Of a stretch of 64,000 bases of DNA, positions 29,950-44,325 are shown piece after piece. Source of the DNA: a virus. Position 1 is the first letter of the stretch; each line of letters begins with the position of its first letter. The stretch lies in the UHGV virus genome UHGV-0132465; one strand, written 5' to 3'. The translations under genes were made by a program, and so were the position numbers. The notes beneath the pieces were generated by a model. That model was given only the letters and a program-made list of their open reading frames with translations. It had not been told where the DNA came from and ran no database searches.

Positions 29950-30140
29950 GAAACAAGAAAGAGCTTTACTCTGGTGAGTGGATAAACGATCAACAGGTAG
30001 GAGAGGTAACCTGCTTCCGGTGCTTTACTCGGTACAATCTTAAAACTGCACCAAAAAGTGTTCCAAAGACTGATGGTTATTACATAAAAGAACCTCATTG
30101 CCCAAAATGCAAATGCCGAGTATACTGGAGTAACCTGTAA
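29946..30140 (+). CDS. zinc-ribbon protein (64 aa)
   Basis: CFRC ... CPKCKC cysteine pairs; ATGA stop/start overlap. Confidence 0.5.
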   Translation: MRNKKELYSGEWINDQQVGEVTCFRCFTRYNLKTAPKSVPKTDGYYIKEPHCPKCKCRVYWSNL

Positions 30141-30203
30141 AAGGTTGACATCTGAAAACTGCGGTGTATAATATAAACATAAACTAGCAGAGAGGGATAA
30201 ATT

Positions 30204-30395
30204 ATGGTAATTTTTAATCGAGACGGTATCATAGTTAGACAGCACCCATTCCTTGAATACTATCAAGTTGAGCAATGGTGTTACGGGGATTGCAGTCATT
30301 CCTATGGGCAAAGTTGGGGATATCGAACAGTTTTTGAATCAACAAATCTTGATAAAGTAAAACAGAAAGTCTTAGAACTTCTTAACAACAAGTGA
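30204..30395 (+). CDS. hypothetical protein (63 aa)
   Basis: ORF with GAGAGGG RBS. Confidence 0.45.
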   Translation: MVIFNRDGIIVRQHPFLEYYQVEQWCYGDCSHSYGQSWGYRTVFESTNLDKVKQKVLELLNNK

Positions 30396-30405
30396 GTATT
30401 ATACT

Positions 30406-30738
30406 ATGGTAACATTAGAAAGACGTAAAGCTATCGCCGCCACACTGGCAGATATCTTTTGGGATTGCAATTTAAAAGATACTCGAAATTGTGGCGCATC
30501 TGTAGATGTATTATTTCCACGACCTACCATTATTGCGATGGGTAACCTGCTGGATACAGTTACAGGTGCATGGGATAAGGAGGGCGGTTTCTATATCTGG
30601 CAACCTGTCTACGGAGCCTGGAAAGAGGTAAGAGGCGCTGATGACTTTGGGCCTACAGCCGCTAAGATGGATGGTTGGAAAATTTATGTTGGGAACGATA
30701 TGAAGCTGAAAGGTGAGATTGTTTACTGGTTACCTTAA
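30406..30738 (+). CDS. hypothetical protein (110 aa)
   Basis: ORF in co-oriented compact block. Confidence 0.5.
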   Translation: MVTLERRKAIAATLADIFWDCNLKDTRNCGASVDVLFPRPTIIAMGNLLDTVTGAWDKEGGFYIWQPVYGAWKEVRGADDFGPTAAKMDGWKIYVGNDMKLKGEIVYWLP

Positions 30739-30758
30739 TAAAACGCAGGAGATAAAGT

Positions 30759-31004
30759 ATGAACAAAGGGTGGACATTTGTAGACGGCGTTAAAAACATG
30801 CCTCTCGGAAAGTATATCGTAGCCATGGCTGACGAGAATGGTAATGTGGATTTCGGAGTTTGCGAGATTGTTCTTGCAGGATCTGGTGACTATGCCCACA
30901 AAACTGGGATAATTAACGGTCATTTCTACTTTGATTACAACCCTGTTGTGGCGTATATGGCTATGCCAGAGTTAGAGCTCCCAAAGGAGGGTGCAGATGT
31001 TTAA
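30759..31004 (+). CDS. hypothetical protein (81 aa)
   Basis: ORF with AGGAG RBS. Confidence 0.5.
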   Translation: MNKGWTFVDGVKNMPLGKYIVAMADENGNVDFGVCEIVLAGSGDYAHKTGIINGHFYFDYNPVVAYMAMPELELPKEGADV

Positions 31005-31194
31005 GCTTAAATCTGCATGGAACATTGCTGTGGGTGATGAGATCCGCATTCCGGGTGGGAAGACCGTTATGAAGATATCCCGTATTGAATACGAAGGCGA
31101 CCGTGTATTCCACATCTTTGCAGAAGATGGTCGGGAAATTTATGTACAAGCAGGCTCTCACATCTATATCCGTAAGAAAGGGGGTGACAAATGA
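30991..31194 (+). CDS. hypothetical protein (67 aa)
   Basis: ORF with AGGAGGG RBS. Confidence 0.45.
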   Translation: MQMFKLKSAWNIAVGDEIRIPGGKTVMKISRIEYEGDRVFHIFAEDGREIYVQAGSHIYIRKKGGDK

Positions 31195-31520
31195 CAGAGA
31201 TCATTATTTCAACTGCAGGGTATGTATTCCTGACAATCATTGCTCTGACCATTTTGGTGGCGGTATATGGATTTGTTATTCTACCTATTCTTGAGACAAT
31301 TAGTTTGTGTCGGTGTTGGAGAAAGGCTTACGGTCCACAGCCGTGGAGGGACTGGCCCCACCTGGTTCGCATAGCGTTCTCTTATGCTTATGATCACGCC
31401 AGCAGTGCATGCATAACCGGGTATCACGCTCACAATTGGAACTGGGAAGGGTTGGGTAGATGGAATGTTATAAAGACCATACCTCTACGTATGCACAAGC
31501 CTAAAAACAAAGACAGTTGA
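31191..31520 (+). CDS. hypothetical membrane protein (109 aa)
   Basis: hydrophobic N-terminal segment; ATGA overlap with upstream stop. Confidence 0.5.
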   Translation: MTEIIISTAGYVFLTIIALTILVAVYGFVILPILETISLCRCWRKAYGPQPWRDWPHLVRIAFSYAYDHASSACITGYHAHNWNWEGLGRWNVIKTIPLRMHKPKNKDS

Positions 31521-31550
31521 TACTTGAAAATCCCTGGCACATCAAGTATA

Positions 31551-31583
31551 AGGAGGATTTCTAAAATGGATTTCCTCCTTTTG
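31551..31583 (+). terminator. candidate intrinsic terminator (AAGGAGGA ... TCCTCCTT stem + TTTT)
   Basis: 8-bp inverted repeat followed by T-run after last gene of the block; could alternatively be RBS plus start of a 35-aa hydrophobic ORF (31566-31673). Confidence 0.4.
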
Positions 31584-31832
31584 ATATTTTACCTGGCCGG
31601 ATATTTTAAAATCCTTAGAAAATCAGAAAATGGATCGAAAACTAAAATGGATTTTTCAAGACAGGCGCGATAAGATGTGCTGCTCATTCTATCGTTCGCA
31701 CCGTACTTTAAGTCACTATTCCAGATTTTCCGCACATACTCTCACCCTTCTACCAGAACTTTCCCAGCTTACCTCTGACCTTTTATAACAATAAGTCCAT
31801 TATTATCAGAAAGTTTCGGCACATCTCTCTCG

Positions 31833-32010
31833 GTACTCGATCTGTTTTTCATTTCAAAGACCTGATTTTCTGAAAATTTTTCTCGATAAATTTCTTAGTA
31901 CTCGATCTGTTTTTCGTTTTCTGAATCAGATTTTCTGGAAATCGTTCCGGCGCTCGACCTAAAATTTTTGGGGACGAAATCGATTTTTCGTTTTCAGAAA
32001 TGGATTTTTA
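31833..32010. repeat. three spaced direct repeats (GTACTCGATCTGTTTTTC and derivative) with adjacent AT-rich tract
   Basis: exact 18-bp repeat at 31833 and 31898, degenerate third copy near 31980, about 65-bp periodicity, in an ORF-free 600-bp region. Confidence 0.6.
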
Positions 32011-32161
32011 AAATTTATATATGGGAATATTTTATTGGATATTGTTTTATAGGAAATTGTTACGGAGGGTAATTAGCATGCTAATTAAATTTATTAAATG
32101 CGAGGAGTTCTCATTTAGAATTTTGAATGATAATCATTCTCGTTTGCAGAATAACGGGCAC

Positions 32162-32313
32162 CCCCGGTGATTGTCTCCCGGCCCCTGTTGCCCCGGCTTG
32201 TTATTATAGTATCACACAGGACAAAGAAAGCAAGGATTTTTTGCATGAATTTTTAAACGATAATGATAACAGTTCTCATCTCATGCAACGCCCATCCCCG
32301 GTGGTTGTCTCCC
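32162..32313. repeat. GC-rich island with two direct repeats CCCCGGTG(A/G)TTGTCTCCC
   Basis: 18-bp repeats at 32162 and 32296 with one mismatch; all six frames open because of composition, no RBS. Confidence 0.5.
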
Positions 32314-32541
32314 CCGTCACCGGTGCCTGCCGTCCTTCCGATAAGTATATTGTGCCACCTAGCGGGGCCGCTGTCAACACCTTTTCAAAAAATTTTCTAA
32401 CCTGGTTCGTCCACCGCCGCAACCTGGCGGGGCCAACCATGCCGGGGGGCAAAATTATAAAAGTGGTTGCGCCTGGTCCTGAAAGGCAGTATAAAAGAAT
32501 CAGGAAAGAGAGATACCCAACAAGGCGAGGAGGAAAATAAA

Positions 32542-32712
32542 ATGAAAGGTAAAAATAAAAAAGATATCTCAATGAACTGCAAGGATATTAATGCAAAACG
32601 TGAAAAAGCGGCCCGTGATGCCCTGGTCAACTGGTTGGACTATGAAAAAAGGATGGTTGAAGCTGCAGGAGCTGCCGCCGGAGCTTTTTACCCTAAAAAT
32701 AATTTAAGATAG
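32542..32712 (+). CDS. small basic protein (56 aa)
   Basis: ATG after GAGGAGG RBS; first gene of the small-gene array. Confidence 0.45.
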   Translation: MKGKNKKDISMNCKDINAKREKAARDALVNWLDYEKRMVEAAGAAAGAFYPKNNLR

Positions 32713-32801
32713 CTATTGACAACGTGGCGAGTAACCTGGTATTCTTATCCACAAGATGAACAACACCGCTACACCATGCAGCTAACAGAGAGGAAAACAG
32801 C

Positions 32802-32999
32802 ATGAACGCATACGGCATTAAAGTACGTCGCAATATTCGCCAGGTGGTCACCGATCAAATGGTTTGCCGGGTGGATGTAACCATCAACAATGGGCAAGGT
32901 CTTTATAAATTCCGTCGCGGTCAGAGCTATACCCGGCAACAGCTTAATCGTTGCGCCCTGACAAAAGGACAGATCAACCACTGGTTTAATAAAAAATAA
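32802..32999 (+). CDS. hypothetical protein (65 aa)
   Basis: own promoter-like element and RBS. Confidence 0.5.
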   Translation: MNAYGIKVRRNIRQVVTDQMVCRVDVTINNGQGLYKFRRGQSYTRQQLNRCALTKGQINHWFNKK

Positions 33000-33003
33000 G
33001 TAT

Positions 33004-33032
33004 TGACATATAGTCCGACACCAAATACACTA
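33004..33032 (+). promoter_or_regulatory. sigma70-like promoter (TTGACA-17-TACACT)
   Basis: consensus -35 and spacing upstream of 33064. Confidence 0.55.
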
Positions 33033-33063
33033 AAAGCACAAAAGACACTGAGAGGATAAAATC

Positions 33064-33462
33064 ATGAAAACCACTACCTTTAATTTTGATAATGCGGACT
33101 TTTCTTTTTCTGATGTCAAGAACTGCCGTCGTGATCGTGGATTTTACAAGGCTTATAATCTGGTGGGCCTGGACGATGACAATAATTTGCACGAAGTAGC
33201 TGAGATCCGGTATTATGCCGCCGCCAGCGGGAACACTCAATACTGCGTTTTTTGGATTCACGACAACAAGAACAATAAGTACGGTTATACTGGCGGGAAG
33301 GCGAGCGGTCACGGTTACGATAAAGCTAATGCAGCACTTGAGAGCGCATTAAATGCTATGGGGATCACTGCCAACGGCTGGATCTATGAAGAAGAGTTTT
33401 TGTCGGCACTTGCTAACCACCTGGGCTATAAAAAGCACATTGTAACATGCGCCCACGAATAA
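33064..33462 (+). CDS. hypothetical protein (132 aa)
   Basis: ORF with GAGAGG RBS. Confidence 0.5.
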   Translation: MKTTTFNFDNADFSFSDVKNCRRDRGFYKAYNLVGLDDDNNLHEVAEIRYYAAASGNTQYCVFWIHDNKNNKYGYTGGKASGHGYDKANAALESALNAMGITANGWIYEEEFLSALANHLGYKKHIVTCAHE

Positions 33463-33468
33463 AAATTG

Positions 33469-33497
33469 TTGACACGCTGCAAAATTCAAGTAAACTA
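33469..33497 (+). promoter_or_regulatory. sigma70-like promoter (TTGACA, -10 TAAACT)
   Basis: consensus -35; -10 resembles the one inside the 45-bp repeated element. Confidence 0.5.
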
Positions 33498-33506
33498 ATC
33501 ACAAAA

Positions 33507-33525
33507 GGCGGGAAACATTCCCGCC
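33507..33525 (+). promoter_or_regulatory. 5'-UTR stem-loop GGCGGGAAACATTCCCGCC
   Basis: perfect 7-bp GC stem between promoter and RBS; near-identical copy at 36060. Confidence 0.6.
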
Positions 33526-33544
33526 AACACAAAGGAAAAAGATC

Positions 33545-33949
33545 ATGAATAAGAACGTACGCCGCATCATGAACGAGCTGGCAAACGATGAAAAAATTAT
33601 TGACATGCATTTGATCAACATTTGCCGCCGTTGTGTAACATATAACAACCGCGCCGCAAAAGCGCGTGAGATGAACGCAAAAGGCACCTTAAAGCCCTTC
33701 CAGGTGGTGGTAAAGGCCATTAAAGATGTAACTAATACGGCAAACCAGGTACAGGGGAACACCAACGAGAGTACCAGTATTGATCCGGCTTACATCATGA
33801 AACGGATCCGGACCTGCAAGAACAAAGAGCAAGTGTATAACGTCATAGACTGGTTGGATTCCATGGGCGACGTGGTGTACAATAGGTTTTCTGCAGCTAT
33901 CGAGATCCAGCTTGACAGGTTGGACGGGAAAGTACTGAAAACTTACTAA
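33545..33949 (+). CDS. hypothetical protein (134 aa)
   Basis: ORF with AAAGGAAAAAG RBS. Confidence 0.5.
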   Translation: MNKNVRRIMNELANDEKIIDMHLINICRRCVTYNNRAAKAREMNAKGTLKPFQVVVKAIKDVTNTANQVQGNTNESTSIDPAYIMKRIRTCKNKEQVYNVIDWLDSMGDVVYNRFSAAIEIQLDRLDGKVLKTY

Positions 33950-33951
33950 GT

Positions 33952-33996
33952 TTATTTTTAGATGGCCTTGACTCCAGGGCCATCAATAAAGTAAAC
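33952..33996 (+). repeat. 45-bp conserved intergenic element, copy 1 (TTATTTTTAGATGGCCTTGAYTCCAGGGCCATCAATAAAGTAAA)
   Basis: contains inverted repeat GATGGCC/GGCCATC and promoter-like TTGAYT ... TAAACT; copies at 34582 and 38318. Confidence 0.7.
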
Positions 33997-34029
33997 TAAT
34001 CTCAGTTAAGCGAAAAAGGGGGCTTTAAG

Positions 34030-34149
34030 ATGAGCACTACACGCCAATACACAAAGGTAACTATTATCGTTTGCGTTGTCGGTTACATCCTGGCGCAAAT
34101 GTTAATGAGTAGCGCTAACAGTTTTGCAAAATTTTTCTTAAATTTTTAA
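34030..34149 (+). CDS. small hydrophobic peptide (39 aa)
   Basis: RBS-preceded ATG; predicted single transmembrane segment; below ORF-track cutoff. Confidence 0.35.
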   Translation: MSTTRQYTKVTIIVCVVGYILAQMLMSSANSFAKFFLNF

Positions 34150-34176
34150 TTGACAAGCTAACTTAGATTGATATAC
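34149..34176 (+). promoter_or_regulatory. sigma70-like promoter (TTGACA-16-TATACT)
   Basis: consensus hexamers upstream of 34229. Confidence 0.55.
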
Positions 34177-34228
34177 TTAAACACGTAAACGGGAAAACTT
34201 CCCAGAACACACAAAAGGAGAAAACATT

Positions 34229-34579
34229 ATGAATACTTCCATCACTATGACCGCCGAAGAAAAAGCCCTGCAGATCGCCGCTCTGAAAAAACAGATTGCA
34301 GAACTTGAAGACAAGATCGACAATTTTGAAATCGACGAAGACAAATACGACGATAAATATGATGAATGGCTAGACGAAATCTATGGCGAAATTATGATCG
34401 GTTGTATCTCTTTTCTTCCGTCGCATATCCTCAAAGAGCTAGATCCTATCGCTTACCGCTGTGGCTTTAGTGATTATATTGATAGCCTAGATATTGAAGA
34501 TGACGAAGACTATCAGGAATTGCAAGCGGAGCTTGAAGAAGTGAAAGAAGAGCTTGCAGAACTGGAAGAAAACGAGTAA
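34229..34579 (+). CDS. acidic hypothetical protein (116 aa)
   Basis: ORF with AAGGAGAAAA RBS; Asp/Glu-rich. Confidence 0.5.
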   Translation: MNTSITMTAEEKALQIAALKKQIAELEDKIDNFEIDEDKYDDKYDEWLDEIYGEIMIGCISFLPSHILKELDPIAYRCGFSDYIDSLDIEDDEDYQELQAELEEVKEELAELEENE

Positions 34580-34581
34580 GC

Positions 34582-34626
34582 TTATTTTTAGATGGCCTTG
34601 ATTCCAGGGCCATCAATAAAGTAAAC
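34582..34626 (+). repeat. 45-bp conserved intergenic element, copy 2
   Basis: near-identical to 33952-33996. Confidence 0.7.
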
Positions 34627-34668
34627 TTTACACTGTTAACACTGAACTAATACAGAGGAGTTAAAACC

Positions 34669-34914
34669 ATGGCCGCACTAATTACCAAATATTATGCCCC
34701 TACCAACACCAAAAGCGCCCGTATCATGGTAAAAGGCTTCGGACGTAAAAAGGTTTACACCTGGGATTATTCCCTAGACATGGAAGACAACTACACCAAC
34801 GCAATGACCGATTTTATTAATGATCTGAATAAACAGATCTTGACCGACTACAAAGTGACCGATATTGCCTACGTCGGGGAAGGCGGGATCTGTTTTGTAG
34901 GCATTGTGAAATAG
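34669..34914 (+). CDS. hypothetical protein (81 aa)
   Basis: ORF with GAGGAG RBS. Confidence 0.5.
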   Translation: MAALITKYYAPTNTKSARIMVKGFGRKKVYTWDYSLDMEDNYTNAMTDFINDLNKQILTDYKVTDIAYVGEGGICFVGIVK

Positions 34915-34989
34915 TTATTTTTTCGGTGGTCCTGGCTGCAGGGCCATCTATAAAGATAATTTATTAACACCATGAAAGGAGAAAGTAAC

Positions 34990-35343
34990 ATGATCAGCGG
35001 TGCAAGTTTTATCATTGGCGCTATTGCTACGGCTTTAATTGTAAACAAGATCCAATCCAAAAACGAAAAAGAGAGCAACGCCTTTACAGAATACCCATTT
35101 TGGGTATTCAACGACAACGAAGACTATATAATCAAGTACAAGGATGAGAAGGGCGACCAGGTAACACCACGACCGATCCCGGCTTACAAGATGCAAGAAA
35201 CACTATACCGCCTAAAGGCTGGAGGCGCAAAAATCGTAGACTTTTGGGGATATGATTGCAAGGATCAGGAGGTTATAAAACGGCGTATCCGTGCGATTCA
35301 GGCAAATATTGAAATCAGTAAAGGGGGAAGTTATGAAAATTAA
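34990..35343 (+). CDS. hypothetical membrane protein (about 117 aa)
   Basis: start at ATG after AAAGGAG; N-terminal hydrophobic segment. Confidence 0.5.
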   Translation: MISGASFIIGAIATALIVNKIQSKNEKESNAFTEYPFWVFNDNEDYIIKYKDEKGDQVTPRPIPAYKMQETLYRLKAGGAKIVDFWGYDCKDQEVIKRRIRAIQANIEISKGGSYEN

Positions 35344-35530
35344 TTTCGAAAAAATTGTAAAGCGCCCTCATGATTCCGAAGAGTTGCCGAAACGCCGCCA
35401 GCGTAACAATAAACTGAATAAGCCAAAAAGGTTTGGGAAGATCTGGCGGAATCACTATGATCGCAAATTACCGGGCCTGCTTTTGGAACGTGAACGACAG
35501 GCAGAACGATACCGCCATAAAGACAAATAA
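35333..35530 (+). CDS. small basic protein (65 aa)
   Basis: ATG after AAGGGGGAAG RBS; Arg/Lys-rich. Confidence 0.45.
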   Translation: MKINFEKIVKRPHDSEELPKRRQRNNKLNKPKRFGKIWRNHYDRKLPGLLLERERQAERYRHKDK

Positions 35531-35538
35531 CAACCAAC

Positions 35539-35566
35539 GCCCCGCCATTGTGCGGGGCTTTTTATT
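35539..35566 (+). terminator. intrinsic terminator (GCCCCGC-CATTGT-GCGGGGC + T-run)
   Basis: 7-bp GC stem followed by TTTTTA. Confidence 0.65.
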
Positions 35567-35711
35567 TCTATCCCGCCGATAGCGCCCCTGGTTGGCCCCA
35601 CAAGCCCCCTAAAAGCCCCTACCTATGCAATCCCCTTTCTTAACCTGAAAACAGCGCCCAGGGCCGTTTTATGGCGTTAAAAATATTATTGACAGTGATT
35701 TTATTTAAAGC

Positions 35712-35739
35712 TTGACATCTTAAACAGGTTAGATATACT
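35712..35739 (+). promoter_or_regulatory. sigma70-like promoter (TTGACA-16-TATACT)
   Basis: consensus hexamers upstream of 35772. Confidence 0.55.
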
Positions 35740-35771
35740 AACCACATCAAAGAGAGAAAGGAGTAAACGCC

Positions 35772-36032
35772 ATGCGTAAATTAAAAAATTTTGATAAGGT
35801 TGATGTTGTCCTGAATAATTTTTACTACTGCAACAACAAGGCCATTTGGTGGCGTGATAGTTCCACCGATAAAGTCAAGGCGCGCTTTCTCCAGGGGCAC
35901 TGGCAAGGCCGCCCAGTGATTAAAATCATGGGGCAATTGGCAGCGTTTAAAAATTGCCGCCGTGTTGATGACGTTGAAGAGATTTTAAACATTTTGCGCC
36001 ACAATAATTTAAAAAATAGCGTTGACAAGTAA
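35772..36032 (+). CDS. hypothetical protein (86 aa)
   Basis: ORF with AAAGGAG RBS. Confidence 0.5.
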   Translation: MRKLKNFDKVDVVLNNFYYCNNKAIWWRDSSTDKVKARFLQGHWQGRPVIKIMGQLAAFKNCRRVDDVEEILNILRHNNLKNSVDK

Positions 36033-36049
36033 ATCTAGATAAGTATACT
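36022..36049 (+). promoter_or_regulatory. sigma70-like promoter (TTGACA-16-TATACT)
   Basis: consensus hexamers upstream of 36107. Confidence 0.55.
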
Positions 36050-36059
36050 TAAACACACA

Positions 36060-36078
36060 GGCGGGAAAACTTCCCGCC
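36060..36078 (+). promoter_or_regulatory. 5'-UTR stem-loop GGCGGGAAAACTTCCCGCC
   Basis: perfect 7-bp GC stem about 10 nt after the -10 element; paralogous to 33507. Confidence 0.6.
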
Positions 36079-36106
36079 ACTAACAAAGAAAATAGGAGAA
36101 AATATC

Positions 36107-36730
36107 ATGACCACCGTTAACATTACCACAGGTTACAATTTATCTTTCGACGTGCTGACCGATGAACAAAAAGAAAAAGCTATTGAAATGGTCCGCGAAA
36201 GAGAAGAACACAGCGGGGATAACTTTTTTGCAGAAAGTGTAATTGAAGACTATAAAGAATATATCTTTCCAGAGTATGGCCTTGAAGATACCAAGGTACA
36301 TTGGTCCGGCTTTTGGTGCCAGGGTGACGGCGCGTCAATCAGTGCGGAAAACGTGGATTTAGAAAAATTCTTGCGTAAAGTCAAGTCTCTGACTAAATTC
36401 CGCTCAATTCGTCACTTGTTCGGCACAATGCACGATGGCGAGCTATCCGCAAGTGTTGAGCGTGATCCATATAGCCGCTATAGTCACGAAAACACTGTAA
36501 GCGGGTACATCGATACTACATGGCTAGACCTGACAGCCAAGCAAGAAAGTAAGGTTGAAGAGCTGGAAGAGTTGATCACCGAGACGGTGCGGGAGCTATC
36601 CCGCAAGGTTTACGTAGACCTGGAGCAAGCTTATCTTGAACAATTTACTACCGAAAACCTGATCGGCCTTATCGAGGCCAATGATTGGCGGTTTGATGTG
36701 GATGAATATGGCGAGATGACTTTTTCATAA
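36107..36730 (+). CDS. hypothetical protein (207 aa)
   Basis: ORF with AGGAGAAAA RBS. Confidence 0.55.
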   Translation: MTTVNITTGYNLSFDVLTDEQKEKAIEMVREREEHSGDNFFAESVIEDYKEYIFPEYGLEDTKVHWSGFWCQGDGASISAENVDLEKFLRKVKSLTKFRSIRHLFGTMHDGELSASVERDPYSRYSHENTVSGYIDTTWLDLTAKQESKVEELEELITETVRELSRKVYVDLEQAYLEQFTTENLIGLIEANDWRFDVDEYGEMTFS

Positions 36731-36818
36731 ATAAAGTGTTGCAATAACCTAAAAACCTGCTATATTAAAACTCAAGGGGCAAGACGTTTGCCCCACACAA
36801 AACAAAGAGGAAAACATT

Positions 36819-37199
36819 ATGAAAAGCACCACTAAAGCCATTGACACCGTTATGTTTAACCTGGTTACCTTTCGTGAGGATATGAAAGATCTTCCACGTG
36901 AAACAGTGTGCGATCACATCGAAAACTATCGCAAACTGATCAAACAACTGCCTTTAAAACGTGACCAATATGCGGCTAACGCTATGCTTAACGCCATGAT
37001 CAAAAAGATGATCCAGTGTGATTTAACTCTGGCCTATGATTATGCAGGCGGTCGTTTTGCAGTATACAATCAGCCCGTGCCCGGTATGAGCACCACTGAA
37101 GAATTGCACGCGTTAAATCTAAAACAAGATGTATGGGATAGCATGCCCCGCGTGGTGGTGTGGGCAGAAAGCGGAAAGATTTACGGCGATAATTTTTAA
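36819..37199 (+). CDS. hypothetical protein (126 aa)
   Basis: ORF with AAGAGGAAAA RBS; upstream UTR hairpin GGGGCAAGACGTTTGCCCC. Confidence 0.5.
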   Translation: MKSTTKAIDTVMFNLVTFREDMKDLPRETVCDHIENYRKLIKQLPLKRDQYAANAMLNAMIKKMIQCDLTLAYDYAGGRFAVYNQPVPGMSTTEELHALNLKQDVWDSMPRVVVWAESGKIYGDNF

Positions 37200-37266
37200 T
37201 CAGGTAACAGGCGGCGGCATATTTGCCGCCTTATTGTTAAGCAGAATTGTAAGAGAGGTACACAGA

Positions 37267-37638
37267 ATGGAATTTATTATTTTGGCTGTATTAGTTGCCT
37301 TGTTCAACGCCTGGATAGCTGGCAAAACAGGTAGATCCGCTTTTCTATGGTTTGTTATATCTATTTTCCTGGGAGTGGTTGCAACCATTGTATTAGTTAT
37401 CCTTGCAATTGTTGACAAGGATAATAATAAGAAAGGTAAAGTATTTTCCGACCTGTATGACGCTCAAACTTTTGTTAACGCCTATTATAGTGATCTTCCG
37501 GTCTCCTTGCGCTGCAGCCTAGCGCAACAAGTTTTCGATGAAGCTAAAACCAGAGAACAGGCCCATGAAATATGTCTAACCGAGGCAGATCGCCTATTCG
37601 AGAGGAATAGAAAATATGTGGACCAGCCGTTTAAATAA
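37267..37638 (+). CDS. hypothetical membrane protein (123 aa)
   Basis: start at ATG after GAGAGG; two predicted transmembrane segments. Confidence 0.5.
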   Translation: MEFIILAVLVALFNAWIAGKTGRSAFLWFVISIFLGVVATIVLVILAIVDKDNNKKGKVFSDLYDAQTFVNAYYSDLPVSLRCSLAQQVFDEAKTREQAHEICLTEADRLFERNRKYVDQPFK

Positions 37639-38113
37639 TGCCACGTTAATTAATCCCTTTAGTGAAGATTTGAAGCCAGCGGCCTGGCGTGAGGGATTCA
37701 ACACAGAAAGATTTATTTTCAGGCCTGACCTTGAGGAATTTTATAACAATGGATCGAACAACGACAGAGATAATTTTTCTTGTAATGTGCGTGGTGATAA
37801 TACTCCTGGGGGCCATTACAAACCACGTCACTGCTAACAGGAGGAAAGGGGGAGACGATGACAACCAAGGATAAGCCCCGCACCGATAAGGTGCGCCGTG
37901 TTATGGTATGGCTTGAGATCATCGCCCTTGAAATATTGTTAGGCGTAGGGATGTACTTTATCGCTGTAAGTAACTGATAACGGCCCCCAATCCCTGGGGG
38001 CTTAACTTTTTCAAAAATTTTTCTTCTAGGGTGTTGCAATCCGGTCCGGAATATGGATAATAACAATCAACGGGGAGCAATCCCCACCACAAAGACTAGA
38101 AAGGAGAAACAAA

Positions 38114-38314
38114 ATGAGTAACAATATCCGCGTTATTAACTTCAAAAAAGAAGAAAAAATTGCCGTGCTGATTGACGGTCAAGAAATCTTTAAAGGTGAT
38201 TATGAAGATCATCAAACGGCGATTAGTATCACTCGCGTGATTGGTTACCATAATTTTTACCCTCAAGGCGCTGAGGCAGCAGTAAAACGAATTAAAGAGA
38301 TTGTAGGCCTGTAA
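38114..38314 (+). CDS. hypothetical protein (66 aa)
   Basis: ORF with AAAGGAGAAA RBS; upstream UTR hairpin GGGGAGCAATCCCC. Confidence 0.5.
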   Translation: MSNNIRVINFKKEEKIAVLIDGQEIFKGDYEDHQTAISITRVIGYHNFYPQGAEAAVKRIKEIVGL

Positions 38315-38317
38315 AAT

Positions 38318-38361
38318 TTATTTTTAGATGGCCTTGATTCCAGGGCCATCAATAAAGTAAA
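38318..38361 (+). repeat. 45-bp conserved intergenic element, copy 3
   Basis: near-identical to 33952-33996. Confidence 0.7.
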
Positions 38362-38399
38362 TTTAAACCCTGTTAAAATAATCAGTGCAAAAAGGAGTA

Positions 38400-38717
38400 A
38401 TGATCATGTTTATCCAGGCTAATAATCTTTATTTCTTTGATGGTCAGATCGTAGACGGCGTGGAGGTGGAAATCACTGGGTGCCCTGGCGGTCAGGTTAT
38501 GACTTTTCGGAATAATGCCTTTGATGATTCTCATATCGTTATGAGAATGGAAGTTAGTAAGCTGGATGATAAGAAAACATTGATTGACTATTCCGTCAAA
38601 GATCATCCAGACTACCACATGATCTATGGTGATTTGTGCATTGTTGACCGTGACAAGGTGAACGGCATTGTTATAGCCATTGTGAACGATGTTTTCTCTG
38701 AGTATTCCGGCAAATGA
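38400..38717 (+). CDS. hypothetical protein (about 105 aa)
   Basis: ATG after AAAGGAG; exact start (38400 or 38406) uncertain. Confidence 0.5.
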   Translation: MIMFIQANNLYFFDGQIVDGVEVEITGCPGGQVMTFRNNAFDDSHIVMRMEVSKLDDKKTLIDYSVKDHPDYHMIYGDLCIVDRDKVNGIVIAIVNDVFSEYSGK

Positions 38718-38928
38718 TGCAAAATAAGGCCCCTGGCAGGGCCTGCAGCGATATAATCACATAAAGGCTATGCGGTTGCATGGCCTTTATTATTTTAGCG
38801 TTACAGCTGCCCCCAAGGCGCTTAAAAAATTTTTAAAGAAGTACTTGCATCAAGCCCCACAATATGGATAATAAGAGTTGTCGAGGGGGCTATGCCTCCA
38901 ATCATTAACAGAAACAGGAGTTAAAACT

Positions 38929-39213
38929 ATGGCTATTGTTACCGCTGGCGATGTAGTAGAAATGGAAGCAAAATACTTAAAAGCGGGTATGCATATCCTA
39001 CGGAATGATCAAGAGTTATTATTAACGATGGTCGACTATAATCCCGGCCAGGATTATCCAAGCATCGACTACTTTTTTGAGTATGTTGATGAAGAGTTGA
39101 AAGAGGATGAGGCCTATTGCGGTGAGTTCTGCAACTTCTTTTGTCCTGATGAGGTTGTAAAGGTTATTTATCAACCTGGCGTAGCTTTCCCGCTGCACGC
39201 TATCAATAAATAA
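38929..39213 (+). CDS. hypothetical protein (94 aa)
   Basis: start at ATG after ACAGGAG RBS. Confidence 0.5.
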   Translation: MAIVTAGDVVEMEAKYLKAGMHILRNDQELLLTMVDYNPGQDYPSIDYFFEYVDEELKEDEAYCGEFCNFFCPDEVVKVIYQPGVAFPLHAINK

Positions 39214-39268
39214 ACCTGGCGGGGCCGAAAAGGCCCCCAATTATGAAAATAAAGATAGGTTAATCATC

Positions 39269-39502
39269 ATGATGGAACAAATTAAACGCGCCGAGGCTAT
39301 TAATGGCAATGTGATCTATTCTGTCAGCAAAAACGAAAAAGGCGTACCATATGCGGCGGTAATAGTACAGCCTGACGGCGATTATTGGCTTACTGTGTAC
39401 GGCGCGTATTCTTTCGGTCGTCCAGTGCATGATAAAATTTTGAAAGTAGCTAACCCTACGGGGAAGAATATCACGGCAGAAAAATTTTTTGAAAATAATT
39501 GA
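39269..39502 (+). CDS. hypothetical protein (77 aa)
   Basis: ORF in co-oriented block. Confidence 0.45.
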   Translation: MMEQIKRAEAINGNVIYSVSKNEKGVPYAAVIVQPDGDYWLTVYGAYSFGRPVHDKILKVANPTGKNITAEKFFENN

Positions 39503-39574
39503 CATGACCGCCTGAAAGTGTAGTATATAAATCAAAGGGCAAGCCCCGCCAACCACAAAGAGGATAAAAAAATC

Positions 39575-39754
39575 ATGGCTATTATTGCAAAGACCGAGAT
39601 TGCAGGTTTAGATTCTATTCTCCTGGCATATGAGGAAGCTATAGAAATGTATGTGGTTTCCTATGGTGAGTATATCCGTGAATATACATCTATTGATCTG
39701 GCTTTTGAATGTTATATCCGCCAGGTAAATAAAGCATATGATGATTATCGTTAA
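39575..39754 (+). CDS. small protein (59 aa)
   Basis: own TTGACA promoter, UTR hairpin and AGAGGA RBS; below ORF-track cutoff. Confidence 0.4.
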   Translation: MAIIAKTEIAGLDSILLAYEEAIEMYVVSYGEYIREYTSIDLAFECYIRQVNKAYDDYR

Positions 39755-39845
39755 AATAGTTTGACAACAAACAACTATCTAACAAAGCATAATACATAAG
39801 GTGGTAGAATGATCCGCCACCTGGAACAAAGAAGAGGTAAACACC

Positions 39846-40091
39846 ATGAAAAGCAATAAAGGTTATAACGGTCACAAAAACAAAACTCATTGGAATGTAA
39901 GCCTTTGGATTAATAACGATGAATCATTATACTTATACGCTGTAGGCTTAATAAATGAGTGCGGCAATAAAGATAAAGCGGCGGATCTAATGTGCTACAG
40001 ATTAAAACAGGACGGAATCACTCATACACCTGATGGTTTCAAGTATAGTAAAACTGCAATCCGTGCCGCTATGGTAGGAATGAAACACTAA
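39846..40091 (+). CDS. hypothetical protein (81 aa)
   Basis: ORF with AGAGG RBS; upstream UTR hairpin. Confidence 0.5.
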   Translation: MKSNKGYNGHKNKTHWNVSLWINNDESLYLYAVGLINECGNKDKAADLMCYRLKQDGITHTPDGFKYSKTAIRAAMVGMKH

Positions 40092-40165
40092 AAGCACATA
40101 GCCGCCTTACCCTGGGGCTGTGGTAGCGGCCCCATGAATAAGGTTACTAACAAAGAATAGAAAAC

Positions 40166-40270
40166 ATGAAACAGAAATTAATTGATGCGGTAATCCTGGT
40201 TATTGCCCTGGGTATTGGCCTGATTGCAACCATGGCTAATATGATCTTGTCTTCCAACGGTATCGGATAA
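40166..40270 (+). CDS. small hydrophobic peptide (34 aa)
   Basis: RBS-like purine tract; predicted single transmembrane helix. Confidence 0.3.
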   Translation: MKQKLIDAVILVIALGIGLIATMANMILSSNGIG

Positions 40271-40279
40271 GGTGGGCAA

Positions 40280-40495
40280 ATGATCACCAACAAAACAGGC
40301 AAAACAGAATTTTTACGCAACTTGCAGATCGGCAAGCCCGAGATCTGGTATTGCACTAAAACACCACGTGACGAAATGAAAGACTTCACCGCCACGCTGC
40401 AACGGGTAAAGATATCTATCACGCAGAAAAAAGCCTTGATAGTGGTTGAAGGTGAGATCCCTCAAGCCGTTGTTATAATTGAGCGTACAGCATAG
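40280..40495 (+). CDS. hypothetical protein (71 aa)
   Basis: ATG after AAGGTGGG RBS. Confidence 0.45.
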   Translation: MITNKTGKTEFLRNLQIGKPEIWYCTKTPRDEMKDFTATLQRVKISITQKKALIVVEGEIPQAVVIIERTA

Positions 40496-40586
40496 TTTAA
40501 TTTATACAGATACCCGAAAATTAACCAACAAAGCATAAACAGGCGGTTACCGCCGCCTTAAACGTAGCAGAAAGAGGATAGACAAC

Positions 40587-40871
40587 ATGAAAAAGATGAT
40601 CGCAGTGGTTGCCCTGGTTGTTGGACTTAATGCGCCTGTAATGGCTAAAGAGCTGGCAAAAGAGGTTGATCTAACGGATATCCATGCCGTCAATCAAATC
40701 GGGGTTACTTATCGCTTATGCCTTGCCGCTAAAACTTTTAATGACGGTACAACAGAGTACTACGGATTCGAGGGTATCCGGTGCGGTGAGCTTGCTCGCG
40801 ACCTTAAGGAAGATCCAGACCTGGAGGATCTGCCCATCACCGTAAACGGTAAAGCTTACGTAAACCGTTAA
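40587..40871 (+). CDS. secreted hypothetical protein (94 aa)
   Basis: signal-peptide-like N terminus MKKMIAVVALVVGLNAPVMA; AGAGGA RBS. Confidence 0.5.
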   Translation: MKKMIAVVALVVGLNAPVMAKELAKEVDLTDIHAVNQIGVTYRLCLAAKTFNDGTTEYYGFEGIRCGELARDLKEDPDLEDLPITVNGKAYVNR

Positions 40872-40873
40872 CC

Positions 40874-41008
40874 ATGAGAAAGATGATCATCACCTTGGGG
40901 ATTGTGGCGGGATTGCTGGCGCTCTTTCCCCTTATGGTTAGGTATGTGCTGATCAGTGTTGTCCTGGTAGTCAGCGATCTAATGTTATATATTAACTCAT
41001 TGTTTTAG
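40874..41008 (+). CDS. small hydrophobic peptide (44 aa)
   Basis: immediately follows upstream stop; two hydrophobic stretches. Confidence 0.3.
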   Translation: MRKMIITLGIVAGLLALFPLMVRYVLISVVLVVSDLMLYINSLF

Positions 41009-41016
41009 GTGGAATA

Positions 41017-41208
41017 ATGACAGCAGAAGAAGTTAAAAAAGTACTGGCAGTACTACGTTACCATAATCATTGTAAGGTGAAGAATGATCCTGATTATCTC
41101 GATTCATCCCTTGAAGAGGATACACTACAAGCCATAAGTAACATGCAAGAATTGCTAAAGCGCATGACAGAGAAAAACCGACCGGACTACATAGGCGAAA
41201 AAATATAA
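41017..41208 (+). CDS. hypothetical protein (63 aa)
   Basis: ATG after AGGTGGAA RBS. Confidence 0.45.
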   Translation: MTAEEVKKVLAVLRYHNHCKVKNDPDYLDSSLEEDTLQAISNMQELLKRMTEKNRPDYIGEKI

Positions 41209-41419
41209 TCCTTATTGACTAGAAAACAGGGCTTGCAATGGTCCTGTTTTTTGTTATACTTATTCCACGGCAGGCACCTGGCGACGGGGGGAGACAATCA
41301 CCGGGCCTGCCTGTCATATAAGAACTATAAAAACCGTTGACATCTGCCAGGGGGTGGGGTAACATTTATCTTGAAGGGGCAAAAGTGCCCACACAACAAC
41401 CAGAAGAGAGGAAAACATT

Positions 41420-41692
41420 ATGTCAAGCTGGATTAATCAAGAAGTCGAATCACGTTTTAATGCTATCTGGGATCTCGTAGAAAAAGAGGACGGAACATCA
41501 AGCCCCTACCTCAACAATTTGGAATTCCATTTTGTGGAAGCGATGAACGCAGAACATGATCACGAAGGTGGCGCGGATGAGTTCGCTAAAGGTTATGGCT
41601 TTAACAATGCCAACGAAATGATCGAGTCGGTTGTACTCCAAGCCGAGGAAGATTATCAATTAAAAACGCTTGAATTCTGCCGCCGCAAGTAA
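41420..41692 (+). CDS. hypothetical protein (90 aa)
   Basis: own TTGACA promoter, UTR hairpin GGGGCAAAAGTGCCC, AGAGAGG RBS. Confidence 0.5.
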   Translation: MSSWINQEVESRFNAIWDLVEKEDGTSSPYLNNLEFHFVEAMNAEHDHEGGADEFAKGYGFNNANEMIESVVLQAEEDYQLKTLEFCRRK

Positions 41693-41752
41693 TAAGATAA
41701 TGACAAGGGCCGAAAGGCCCACTAATCAGAACCGCACAAAGAGGAAAACATC

Positions 41753-42016
41753 ATGAAACGTCTTGATCAGCTCAAATTAGTTCAATATATGGCTTATCGT
41801 GTTCTTGAAGTACAGAAAGGCAGCAAAAAAGAAGTTTGCGAGAAAGCGTACAAGATCTTTACTCGCAAAAAAGACGATTGGATGTTACGCCAGACTAAAA
41901 AGGCTGACATCTTGGGGTACCTGGAAGAAGAGATCCGGCTTGAAGAACAAGAAGAGATCCGCCGTAGTGAGGCAGATTATCAGGCAGCTTGGGAAAACTG
42001 GATGAGCAACAAATAA
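41753..42016 (+). CDS. hypothetical protein (87 aa)
   Basis: UTR hairpin GGGCCGAAAGGCCC then AGAGGAAAA RBS. Confidence 0.5.
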   Translation: MKRLDQLKLVQYMAYRVLEVQKGSKKEVCEKAYKIFTRKKDDWMLRQTKKADILGYLEEEIRLEEQEEIRRSEADYQAAWENWMSNK

Positions 42017-42158
42017 TACAACAAGTTACATGGTCAGGGGCAATAAAGCCCCTTGATCACACAAAAATTATGCTATCCTTGTTGACAGAGATCGGCAGTT
42101 TTGCTATATTCTTTTTGAAGGGCAGTTGTAAGAAAATTAACTAAGAGGTAAAAACACC

Positions 42159-42578
42159 ATGAACATTAAATCTGATAATCCGGCATATAGCTTTGATAAC
42201 GCTTTTTGTCACGGTCCGGCGGCGAAAGGATTCGAAATCGATGGTAAACTAATTATTGTCAATGTTGACGGGGAAGAGGTTGCAGTATATCCGGTGGCAG
42301 ACGTTAAAAGCCGTCTACAATGCCGCATCGATGTTACCGCCTACCAGCTTGATCCGGTCCGGGTAGTTGCCCTGGTCCTGGAAGAAGAAATTAAAGCAAT
42401 GCACCACAGCAACAAGTTTATTGGTGACGCTCAAGATAATATGCAGGTATGCCGCTATAAAGTTAATGAAGTGCTTAAAGAGTACGGCTATAAGGATTTA
42501 ATGATCAAGCGTGATGAAAAATTCCGCTACCGTAACGACCTGGCAAATCGGATTTTTGAAATATACGAATCATTATAA
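42159..42578 (+). CDS. hypothetical protein (139 aa)
   Basis: ORF with AGAGG RBS; last gene of plus-strand array. Confidence 0.5.
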   Translation: MNIKSDNPAYSFDNAFCHGPAAKGFEIDGKLIIVNVDGEEVAVYPVADVKSRLQCRIDVTAYQLDPVRVVALVLEEEIKAMHHSNKFIGDAQDNMQVCRYKVNEVLKEYGYKDLMIKRDEKFRYRNDLANRIFEIYESL

Positions 42579-42623: not shown

Positions 42624-43208
42624 GTCTGCTCTTCTCCTACCATAAACGGCCCTACCTGGCAAGTGGAATAATTGACTAGCCATCAATCCCACACACTGTA
42701 TAAATATACATGGAAAATAACTATTGCATAATTTTTCATTGTGTGGTAGCAAGGCCATTTTTACCCGTTTTCTCTCCCAAAATTGCACGTAATGCCGCTA
42801 TTGCACAAAATTTAACCTGATGCACATCTTCAACATCTTGTCAATAACTAAAAATCTTTATAAGTCATACACTTACACAACCATAAAGCCGTGTTCTACG
42901 TGAAAAATCGAGTATAACTATAGCCGCCAGATCTCAGAATTTACGTACGTTCACCATTCTATAGCCTGCAAAGTATTTATTCCAACCACAGAATAACGGA
43001 ATAGTCAATACCTGCATAAAATAATTATTCGTGTAAACTGCATAACATAAATCAGCTCAGGTGTCAACATTTTTCGTAAGCAGTTCGAAATTGTCACGAT
43101 AAGTTATTATACACAAAGAAATCTTTAGTCGTCTAATGGTTACTATACATTACTAATCTGACTGGAATCATTAGATGACTAAGAGAAAGATAAGAAATAA
43201 TTAATAAT

Positions 43209-43518
43209 GTAATTGTTTTACCTGTAACAATAAGGCAACTATGCAAACGAATGGCATGGCGCGACGGAGTCGCGACATAATATAAAAGCAGTAACCATCA
43301 CCCCCGTGATAGTTTTTCTGCAATCTATTACTCAGATCATAGTTGCCTTGTATTTAGTTAATCATGACATAACAAGCAAGGCAACTATAGATCTTCTAAT
43401 AGTTGCCCTGCTTTTATATTATGTCATAGAAACGCCCGAAGGGGTGACCTAGTCACCTGGCATAGCCAGCGAAAGATTATTATCTTGTTAATTGTTTTCA
43501 TGCAAACGAATGTCATGG
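43209..43518. repeat. cluster of palindromes and iteron-like repeats (AAGGCAACTAT / ATAGTTGCC x4; GCAAACGAATGNCATGGC x2; GGTGAC-cta-GTCACC)
   Basis: multiple direct and inverted copies within 300 bp of an ORF-poor region between convergent gene blocks. Confidence 0.6.
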
Positions 43519-44268
43519 CTTATCATCTATGCGTGAACTATCCAGGCGTAAACAGTCTATGCGGGAACAATCTATACGGGAACAGTGAGGCATGCAATAG
43601 TAACAACTGTTATTGTATCCGGTGTGTTGAGTATGCCCGGTGTGTCACTATTATGTCACATTATGTCAGACAAGTTTTTCTCCTCTTTGTCAAGTGCTGC
43701 ATGAAAAATTTACAAACTGGTATGGTAGCATTTTTGCGGCCCTGTTTACATTCAGAAATGTATGTATAATCCTTGGTGTGTGGGCGTTTAGACGTCTGGA
43801 CGGTCAGAAGTCCGCAGGTCAATATCTAATCTATTGGTTGCTAACTATATCCCACACAAATAGTAAGAAATATAATTGTTATGTGCGTAAACAGTAACCC
43901 ATGTTATCAATCCCTGTATGTATCGCCAGTGGTGCGCATAATGGGTATTATGTTAAATTGCCCGTAATGATAACTATTCTCACAATGATAGGTATTCTCA
44001 TTCATCCCCACAAGATAGATTGCAAATGTTGTGCCACTGTGTGAACGGCCTGGTCTATTAATTTGCCTCACTGCCTCGATATTTGAGAATTATTATAAAA
44101 ATGAGAAGTATTCCCATTCCGTCCGCCTGGCAGCACTCCTGTAGGACAAGCACAAAATCGGGGCATAACTGACCTGTTCAGATATTTCTGGCTGACTCTT
44201 CAGGTCTGTGTGGGAAAAGCCAACCTCTCCGGCGGCGGGGTAGGGGTCAATTAAAAAATTTATGCGGT

Positions 44269-44325
44269 GTATGAAACCCTCTTCAGGCAAGGTGTGTATT
44301 ATGGTATGAAACCCTCTTCAGGCAA
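44269..44325. repeat. exact 22-bp direct repeat GTATGAAACCCTCTTCAGGCAA x2, 35 bp apart
   Basis: perfect duplication; flanked by related G-rich motifs at 44226-44250 and 44371-44396. Confidence 0.7.

Follow-up and report, generated by a model that had tools for sequence, protein, structure and literature searches.

What function can be assigned to a gene-free stretch within a long series of small early genes of a virulent phage? The question was raised by positions 31521-32130 of a 64,000-nt stretch (the window, that is, the whole of the DNA analyzed here) of the viral genome UHGV-0132465, which an earlier note had read as a candidate replication origin or regulatory locus. Judged by its sequence matches, the window is that of an rV5-like coliphage of the genus Vequintavirus, since the region was matched by 117-122 phage records with 82-95% identity, nearly all of them Vequintavirus (rV5-like E. 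coli myoviruses of ~137 kb). We found that positions 31518 to ~32415 (~0.9 kb) are one conserved non-coding cis-acting DNA module. It has a defined anatomy with a near-unique repeat core, is under purifying selection, is syntenic across genera of large virulent enterobacterial phages, lacks coding or RNA structure, and lies away from the genome ends mapped in relatives. Our preferred, still tentative reading is that the module is a unique cis-acting assembly site, most likely a replication origin under Fur-type gating and with transcription entering it; a transcriptional switch is nearly as probable.

Anatomy and conservation of the module

The 18-mer GTACTCGATCTGTTTTTC was present in two exact copies in the window, at 31833 and 31898, both on the plus strand, as the earlier note had described. 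This length is beyond chance: when 31521-32130 was shuffled 300 times with its dinucleotides preserved, the longest exact repeat had a mean length of 9.8 nt and was at most 14 nt, compared with the 18 nt observed. The 18-mer extends to a 47-nt family, and the degenerate third copy that had been proposed near 31980 was located at 31962-32008, where it is 72% identical to copy 2 over 47 nt. A spacing of about 65 bp had been given for the repeats; it is exact for the first start-to-start interval (65 bp), while the second measures 74-77 bp, with the third copy counted from ~31977. The locus therefore carries three direct repeats of the same orientation and regular spacing (31833, 31898, and ~31977), and at least three are expected of an iteron origin.

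Each repeat is part of a longer compound unit on the plus strand. Repeat a (31823-31887) comprises box 1 (GTACTCGATCTGTTTTTC, 31833-31850) and box 2 (CTGATTTTCTG), followed by AAAATTTTT. Repeat b (31888-31961) comprises box 1 (31898-31915) and box 2 (CAGATTTTCTG), followed by AAAATTTTT at 31961, and the degenerate repeat c (31962-32010) comprises GACGAAATCGATTTTTCG and then ATGGATTTTTAAAATTT. Conservation of the repeats in related phages had been set beforehand as a check that could refute the origin or regulatory reading, and they were kept in all 14 Vequintavirus relatives: box 1 of repeat a was present in every one, with a 2-nt variant in four, repeat b was near-invariant in the 15 sequences, and repeat c was invariant within the genus. 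The enrichment of short motifs was also borne out, with three of the six GATTTTC copies in the window, two of the seven GAAAATC copies, and all three copies of AAATGGATT located here. The CTCGATC core occurs three times in 64 kb, two of them in the module, and this near-uniqueness suits a unique cis site.

The adjoining AT-rich tract is real and broader than the approximately 50 bp initially indicated. It spans 31991-32098, includes a perfect 18-bp palindrome (TAATTAGCATGCTAATTA, 32070-32087), and holds the 60 nt and the 100 nt with the lowest guanine-cytosine (GC) content of the window (17% and 21%, compared with 43% overall). To the left of the repeats, plus-strand GATAYTTK motifs mark the module boundary (31518-31608), with TGATACTTG at 31518 overlapping the stop codon of the upstream gene and GATATTTT at 31583 and 31601. 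These are followed by short plus-strand A-tract repeats of the GAAAATC and AAAATGGAT types (31609-31660; pairwise identity 0.88-0.90), whose homologous run GAAATGGTTTT is present twice in phages PVP-SE1 and EC152.

The selection acting on this DNA was assessed in an alignment of 30021-33630 with 14 Vequintavirus relatives (15 sequences). The block 31833-32415 was the best-conserved stretch of the 3.6-kb alignment, with a pairwise identity of 0.91-0.97 over most of its length and no indels. Variable columns made up 23% of it (135/582), compared with ~53% of the third codon positions of four flanking genes and 77% (122/159) of the adjacent spacer 31674-31832. The whole spacer (31661-31822) evolves fast (pairwise identity 0.67-0.74) and served as a local near-neutral yardstick. 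On the right, the module is bordered by a variable, indel-rich segment (32421-32670; pairwise identity 0.57-0.70) in which no open reading frame (ORF) was intact in more than three of the 15 sequences. Taken together, the low variation, the absence of indels, and the lack of a coding signal indicate that 31833-32415 is under purifying selection as a nucleotide sequence. The earlier note, with its right border at ~32130, missed Fur-box-type palindromes, convergent promoter-like sites, and the conserved continuation to ~32415.

That the region contains no credible gene was confirmed, although the gene-free zone is larger than 31521-32130 and extends from 31518 to ~32540, the ORF at 32127 also being no gene. 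Annotations in related genomes disagree entirely between the 109-aa gene (31191-31520) and the 65-aa gene at 32802. The flanking genes, used as controls, were intact in 15/15 sequences and showed the expected third-position excess of variable sites (e.g., 21:17:59 and 23:13:59), whereas the ORFs between 31521 and 32700 were intact in 0-9 of the 15 and had flat codon-position counts, the single exception being a 43-aa minus-strand ORF. The ORF 32127-32540 (137 aa) was rejected as the next gene: its counts were flat (21:18:18), it was intact in one sequence of 15, two relatives had a stop at codon 8, and its C-terminal ends differed among relatives. Its match to a PHROG family exists because earlier annotations had called that ORF. 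A 35-aa ORF at 31566, with a strong Shine-Dalgarno sequence (AAGGAGGA) 8 nt ahead of its ATG, was also rejected, being intact in 3/15, and this Shine-Dalgarno sequence is an arm of a terminator-like hairpin. The exception, the minus-strand ORF 32115-32246 (MQKILAFFVLCDTIIT...), was intact in 15/15 Vequintavirus sequences, but its codon-position counts were 4:6:5, its start is unconserved between genera, and it is interrupted by stops in three lineages.

A search of Rfam gave no match to the region at the gathering threshold or at E <= 1. ARAGORN found no tRNA genes in the window or in the corresponding locus of the Klebsiella phage K45PH128C2 (OY978796.1), so the decayed tRNA genes considered on account of the "tRNA-Met" and "tRNA-Ile" annotated in that record were rejected. 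These two annotations (L017 2511-2664) overlap the Fur-type boxes and the GC-rich segment of that phage and are likely artefacts. The GC-rich segment itself (AACGGGCACCCCCGGTGATTGTCTCC, 32153-32180), which is 80-90% identical across subfamilies, folded no better than its shuffles (z = +0.85 and +1.03) and had no coding signature in any frame. Single-sequence z-scores across genera were unremarkable (mostly -1 to +0.6), and RNAalifold returned no consensus structure for a 14-sequence cross-genus alignment (3 pairs, -1.55 kcal/mol). A conserved hairpin with a GGUGUUUGUCU loop and covarying stems, proposed by eye, was discarded on the same two grounds.

The only significant fold was a plus-strand terminator-like hairpin directly 3' of the gene 31191-31520 (31550-31592; AAGGAGGA..TCCTCCTT, then UUUUGAUAUUUU). 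Its stem-loop, 31550-31580, had an energy of -15.5 kcal/mol (z = -3.0; 1/200 shuffles as good) and was followed by a U run, so that it combines the stable GC-containing stem and U run of a Rho-independent terminator. The consensus terminator scan missed it because its apical part exceeds the 8-nt loop limit. Its sequence was near-invariant in the 15-sequence alignment, and in phAPEC8 the authors annotated a terminator at the equivalent place.

A sensitive blastn search with the block reached other genera, whose coding DNA can no longer be aligned, with matches of 70-90% to 32085-32242. The loci compared came from Seunavirus (PVP-SE1, EC152), Mydovirus (K45PH128C2), Certrevirus (CR8, POP15), Phapecoctavirus (phAPEC8, anhysbys), Serratia phage Kashira, Aeromonas phage 2L372X, and several IMG/VR contigs. 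At every locus, a 0.7-1.4-kb gap in the plus-strand gene run contained the elements in an unchanged order. GATAYTTK motifs come first, two to four in number (GATATTTG copies in other genera), and the first of them overlaps the upstream stop codon; a run of short A-tract repeats and a variable spacer follow. Next come three compound repeats (GGKWCTCGATCGrnTTTTC, ~20 nt, rATCGTATT, and an AnTn tract), the palindrome AATGAKAATCATTCTCATT in 1-4 copies, CAGAAT with the conserved GGCA...GGTGWTTGTCTC segment, and a sigma-70-like promoter on the minus strand.

The flanking genes are unrelated between genera and encode an HNH endonuclease, a NADAR protein, or products of unknown function; in several phages, unrelated upstream genes end inside the first GATAYTTK copy (TGATATTTG motif). 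Since the order is kept while the flanking genes differ, the module is an independent conserved element. HNH homing-endonuclease genes lie directly to its left in PVP-SE1 (gp204, L019 1393-1980) and in 2L372X (2L372X_021, L023 1540-2211).

In most other genera sampled, the repeats number three, spaced by 74-78 bp and then 63-67 bp; the exceptions are the Aeromonas phage, with two copies, and the EC152 record, which starts inside the first repeat. Their sequence is lineage-specific, with a CTCGATCG type and a AAATTTAAAG type among lineages, and Phapecoctavirus (phAPEC8) has AAAATTTAAAGTTTA-type units yet the same palindromes and GC segment. A constant repeat number and spacing combined with a lineage-specific sequence is the pattern expected of a site that co-evolves with its own binding protein. 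Across loci, repeat c and the last box are separated by 114, 144-147, or 154-156 bp, and these steps of ~3 and ~1 helical turns suggest one phased complex.

A host origin of the module was rejected, as a check against 5,426 E. coli genomes gave a single weak 28-nt match and the plasmid collection yielded a mis-filed phage genome alone. That entry, PLSDB CP057073.1 (137,565 bp), is filed as an E. coli plasmid and is a complete Vequintavirus genome. Labels were also doubtful for 16-19 GenBank records of the MG0656xx series, which are named as Campylobacter jejuni phages and are near-identical to E. coli Vequintaviruses; this suggests mislabelling, carry-over, or a carrier state.

Fur-box-type palindromes and promoter-like sites

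Palindromes of the Fur-box type occupy 32097-32144, with a degenerate copy at 32097-32115 and the main copy TTGAATGATAATCATTCTC at 32123-32141 (register 32126-32144). The sites 32123-32141 and 32259-32277 each match the E. coli Fur consensus at 15 of 19 positions and are the only sites of at least 15 in the window, compared with 0.45-0.5 such sites in Markov-simulated sequences. Read from 32126, the main site matches the palindrome AATGAGAATCATTCTCATT (AATGAKAATCATTMTCATT) at 17/19. Its equivalent was the top Fur-consensus match in every relative, and 1-4 palindrome copies stood at the same position in every genus sampled. The palindrome of PVP-SE1 and CR8 is letter for letter the published Xanthomonas Fur consensus AATGAgAATcATTctCATT (PMC1790865), and the palindrome also resembles Fur sites of A. 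baumannii (PMC3055841). We consider the palindromes putative operators for the host Fur, which is predicted to bind them; a search of the window with a Fur query sequence found no homologue. Because the boxes are kept across lineages whose repeats have diverged, the factor that recognizes them appears to be conserved and to come from the host, and the one for the repeats to be specific to the phage.

Similar boxes were found in other viruses. The exact 17-mer GAATGATAATCATTCTC was present in 103 IMG/VR viral contigs (loci L025-L127), of which 54 had at least two Fur-like boxes within 400 nt and 13 had at least three. The boxes often lay in 40-50-bp tandem repeats, in contigs unrelated to this phage. 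Examples of these loci are L034/L061, L045, L047, L086/L118/L124, L112, and L126, as well as L029 from a 347-kb contig. Tandem Fur-box arrays may thus be a widespread phage cis-element.

Two promoter-like sites face each other at the main box. The candidate rightward promoter P_R (32123-32152, plus strand) consists of TTGAAT, an 18-nt spacer, and CAGAAT, and is overlapped by the predicted Fur box. It is a weak match, with a score of 5.85 compared with a background 95th percentile of 6.1, and its sequence was conserved in nine of 17 loci. The leftward sigma-70-like P_L (32206-32233, minus strand) has a -35 hexamer TTGCTT (32233-32228), 16 nt with TGA, and a -10 hexamer TACTAT (32211-32206). Its predicted start at ~32199 would direct transcription into the boxes, the AT tract, and the repeats. 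The best minus-strand site to the right of the last box ended 61-67 nt from that box in 13/17 loci, and it keeps TTGnnn, a 16-17-nt spacer, often TGn, and TAnnnT (or CAnAAT) despite divergence of the other bases.

In Vequintavirus, box, GC segment, and leftward promoter recur in tandem as unit B (32259-32377, minus strand), with the box GATAATGATAACAGTTCTC at 32259-32277 and the GC segment at 32287-32313. The unit B promoter combines TTGACA (32377-32372), a 17-nt spacer, and CACAAT (32354-32349), which amounts to 10/12 consensus positions with TG and a score of 7.6, and the -10 variants in relatives (CAtAAT and CAaAAT) retain A2 and T6. Both leftward promoters would fire against the flanking genes, with no ORF downstream. 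The case for these promoters rests on their conserved position, not on individual scores, and their activity is predicted.

In other genera, the place of unit B is taken by a different conserved element of ~100 nt, ACTACCGGCGATCCACC...GCCCCGCCTTTTCGCCGTGGGGTGGCG with a U-rich tail, which is absent from the window. It lies just right of the leftward promoter (L019 2640-2745 in PVP-SE1; equivalents in L015-L022, L068, L072, and L105), is kept across subfamilies, and forms hairpins with some compensatory changes. Together with P_R, this element could constitute a Fur-regulated small RNA of ~200 nt in those genera.

A proposed origin weighed against its alternatives

Phased repeats, a near-unique core, whole-turn distances, meltable DNA, boxes for a host factor, a promoter aimed at the site, and a T7-like replisome together point to a unique nucleoprotein assembly site. 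Our preferred interpretation of that site as an origin, which we hold with less than even confidence, proposes that a phage-encoded, lineage-specific protein binds the three 65-78-bp compound repeats, in each of which box 1 (GKWCTCGATC) is accompanied by A/T tracts and, at a distance of about two helical turns, by a second box. The resulting wrapped complex would form beside the most easily melted DNA of the region. P_L, of which unit B is a second copy in this genus, lies ~200 bp further right. Host RNA polymerase starting there would transcribe leftward, first across the GC-rich segment and the Fur-type operators and then into the AT tract and repeats, and would thereby open or prime the site for the T7-like replisome of the phage. 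Through host Fur at the palindromes, iron status may gate this transcription or that from the opposing weak P_R. Protein binding, promoter activity, Fur binding, and replication initiation are all predictions drawn from the DNA sequence.

The genomic setting is compatible with such an origin. The module is surrounded by a long series of small plus-strand early-type genes, many with near-consensus sigma-70 promoters, and the same gene block carries a PIF1-like helicase, a DnaB-like primase-helicase, and a family A DNA polymerase 8-17 kb upstream, the T7-like replisome genes proper (family A polymerase and DnaB-like primase-helicase) being 8-13 kb away. In the rV5 genome paper, an origin was sought by skew analysis and only transcription-linked changes were found (PMC3606486). 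No other origin is thus assigned, which we counted in favor of the origin interpretation.

Several observations weigh against it. The iteron and DNA-unwinding-element organization suggested at the outset stands as far as the direct repeats, the meltable tract, and the absence of genes are concerned; it does not extend to the repeat units, which at 65-78 bp are 3-4 times longer than classical iterons (17-22 bp), to the AT tract, or to a linked initiator. The tract is not AT-rich but of mixed composition in PVP-SE1 (Seunavirus) and K45PH128C2 (Mydovirus), and no initiator gene was found next to the module, whose neighbors are small unknowns, HNH endonucleases, and NADAR genes that differ between genera; it is possible that the initiator is encoded elsewhere. 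A consensus-site search of the module found neither DnaA nor IHF sites. The P_L scores (5.9-7.6) are unremarkable against the promoter-rich background (95th percentile 6.8), and the skew shift across the module is modest (GC +0.124 to +0.073; AT +0.065 to +0.137). Other genera have a terminator-like hairpin ~200 nt right of P_R, suggesting a small-RNA gene, and Fur-type boxes overlapping a promoter, together with convergent promoters, are classical features of a regulatory region and not of an origin.

Two of these points come with observations of their own. The skew values compare 9555-31520 with 32800-42578, throughout which the genes are co-oriented, and the shift could be explained by differing gene classes alone. 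DnaA boxes occur at chance level across the window. One perfect copy (TTATCCACA, 32745-32753) lies just right of the module and abuts the -10 hexamer of a promoter-like site at 32716-32745.

The Fur-type boxes, the convergent promoters, and the conservation to ~32415, all missed at first, put a regulatory role on a nearly equal footing with an origin. The alternative is a transcriptional control region, which we regard as a real possibility, if a less than probable one. According to this explanation, the hairpin at 31550-31592 ends the upstream early operon, and a phage regulator uses the repeats as operator or activator sites. Repression from the Fur-type boxes would act on P_R, where transcription of the small early genes further downstream would restart; P_L and its unit B copy would interfere with P_R or produce antisense RNA, giving an iron-sensitive or temporal switch and not an origin.

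Much of the anatomy fits. The terminator-like hairpin is present; the Fur-type box overlaps the -35 hexamer and spacer of P_R, as in classical Fur-repressed promoters; and the starts of P_R and P_L lie face to face, ~45 bp apart. The helical phasing between the repeats and the last box is kept, phased A/T tracts upstream of a weak promoter fit an activator or UP-type architecture, the hairpin ~200 nt after P_R in other genera is conserved, and Fur-like boxes also occur in the other large non-coding region (43966-44118). On the other side, P_R matches the consensus at only 8/12 positions, is absent or weaker in 8/17 loci, and is followed in the window by no plus-strand terminator detectable in the terminator scan. 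Moreover, the promoter scan found strong independent sigma-70 promoters at 32716, 33003, and 33469 that already serve the downstream genes, and the CTCGATC core is too rare for a general temporal regulator. By-eye inspection of both strands revealed no convincing sigma-70 promoter within the three repeat units.

A Fur decoy is improbable. Tandem boxes, multiplied by phage replication, would titrate the host Fur and derepress host iron-uptake, ribonucleotide reductase, or receptor genes to the benefit of the phage, the repeats being unrelated or accessory. The arrays of 1-4 boxes here and in relatives, the multiple boxes at many of the IMG/VR 17-mer loci, some in unrelated contigs, and the further boxes of the second non-coding region are in line with this idea. 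It leaves the repeats, the GC segment, the promoters, and the fixed order and phasing unexplained, and the few sites per genome may fail to titrate Fur, which is abundant in E. coli.

A packaging signal or genome-end site (pac, a terminal-repeat boundary, or a T5-like injection pause), with GATC repeats read by a terminase or end-binding protein, has very little probability. The repeat core does contain GATC, and several genera have two GATCs ~21 bp apart per unit, an arrangement similar to the Dam-sensitive hexamers at the pac site of P1. In EC152, the record starts within the first repeat, and if the genome ends lie in the other large non-coding region (42.8-45 kb), the module is ~12 kb from one of them. 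GATC is nevertheless not enriched in the repeat region (3 found and 3.1 expected), and the record start points near the module vary from record to record. Terminal repeats have been reported for the relatives KPP-1 (Mydovirus; 514 bp, from a coverage step and PhageTerm; PMC9862379) and BME3 (342 bp; PMC12210895). Both repeats lie in a different non-coding region, where plus- and minus-strand gene blocks converge, equivalent to 42.8-45.0 kb of the window. From these positions, the module was rejected as a genome terminus.

This second ORF-poor region (42800-45000) is larger than the module, is 92-94% conserved in 122 records, and is mostly unannotated. It contains Fur-like boxes at 43966, 43984, and 44100, an exact 22-bp repeat (GTATGAAACCCTCTTCAGGCAA) at 44269 and 44304, two copies of GATATTTG at 44328-44350, and a perfect 18-bp inverted repeat at 43274 and 43408. 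Because it occupies the same position as the KPP-1 and BME3 terminal repeats, the genome ends or the packaging region may be located here, and it most probably corresponds to the box marked "non-coding" on the map of the rV5 paper.

Finally, unrecognized small protein genes or a structured non-coding RNA gene, with the repeats as duplications of it, are highly improbable even though annotators called various ORFs here, two of them with PHROG families, since no ORF showed codon periodicity and the RNA searches described above were negative.

Significance and relation to known systems

No paper pairing Vequintavirinae with iterons, and none containing the 16-mer, was found in the literature, searches for the box sequence and for Fur boxes in phage genomes returned nothing relevant, and no rep_origin feature was present among the matches listed. 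As far as this search shows, we found no prior description of the module. The rV5-like phages are in wide use as candidates for therapy and biocontrol. Neither their replication origin nor a central control site has been defined, and the module offers a concrete, unique, strongly constrained, and directly testable candidate. In phage engineering, it could serve as an ori fragment or be taken into account as a site at which insertions are safe or unsafe. It also calls for a correction of dozens of records with spurious "hypothetical proteins", and even "tRNAs", inside it.

With Fur-type operators inside the module, the development of a strictly virulent phage may be tied to the iron physiology of its host, a form of host sensing that would be new. 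A wider and rather doubtful proposal is that Vequintavirinae, Stephanstirmvirinae, Plateaulakevirus, and at least one 347-kb jumbo contig share an ancient module that wires Fur operators to an origin or early-control site. If true, replication initiation or the early program would be gated by the iron status of the host, or amplified boxes would take over the Fur regulon, and tandem Fur-box arrays would represent a general, overlooked class of phage cis-element.

Iteron-type origins, such as lambda ori with its O protein, P1 oriR, pSC101, and RSF1010 oriV, have iterons of 17-22 bp. Like these, the module is a unique site at which regular repeats of the same orientation adjoin the most AT-rich DNA of the region, the repeats are lineage-specific as if for a cognate binding protein, and host-factor sites lie alongside. 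Unlike these, it has only three compound units of 65-78 bp, no recognizable initiator gene in or beside it, host-factor sites of the Fur type instead of DnaA, IHF, or Fis sites, and an AT tract that is unconserved between genera.

The primary origin of T7 consists of promoters and an AT-rich tract, and oriF and oriG of T4 combine a middle promoter with an unwinding element. As in these transcript-activated or transcript-primed origins, P_L points into an AT-rich tract, and the phage encodes a T7-like replisome; short terminal repeats and T7-type packaging have been reported for a relative (PMC9862379). The module differs in that its promoter resembles those of host sigma-70, neither a phage RNA polymerase nor a MotA-like factor having been identified for it, and in the additional repeats and Fur-type boxes.

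The T5 injection-stop-signal region is non-coding, lies near one end, and contains repeats, palindromes, and DnaA boxes; the T5 terminal repeat is 10 kb long. The module resembles it as a large gene-free stretch of the early region that carries host-factor boxes along with repeats and palindromes and may lie ~9% of the genome length from an end, but its boxes are of the Fur type and it has no 10-kb terminal repeat. We know of no two-step injection in this phage group.

With the Fur boxes of gamma-proteobacteria (E. coli 19-mer GATAATGATAATCATTATC), the module shares the 15/19 match, the tandem arrangement, and the overlap with a -35-like hexamer. Unlike Fur-repressed promoters, it is located in a virulent phage with no iron-related gene downstream, and its best-supported promoter would fire toward the boxes. 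The kind of element is thus familiar, either an iteron-type origin or an operator array with host-factor sites, while its long compound repeats, Fur-type boxes, convergent promoters, and conservation across phage subfamilies are unusual.

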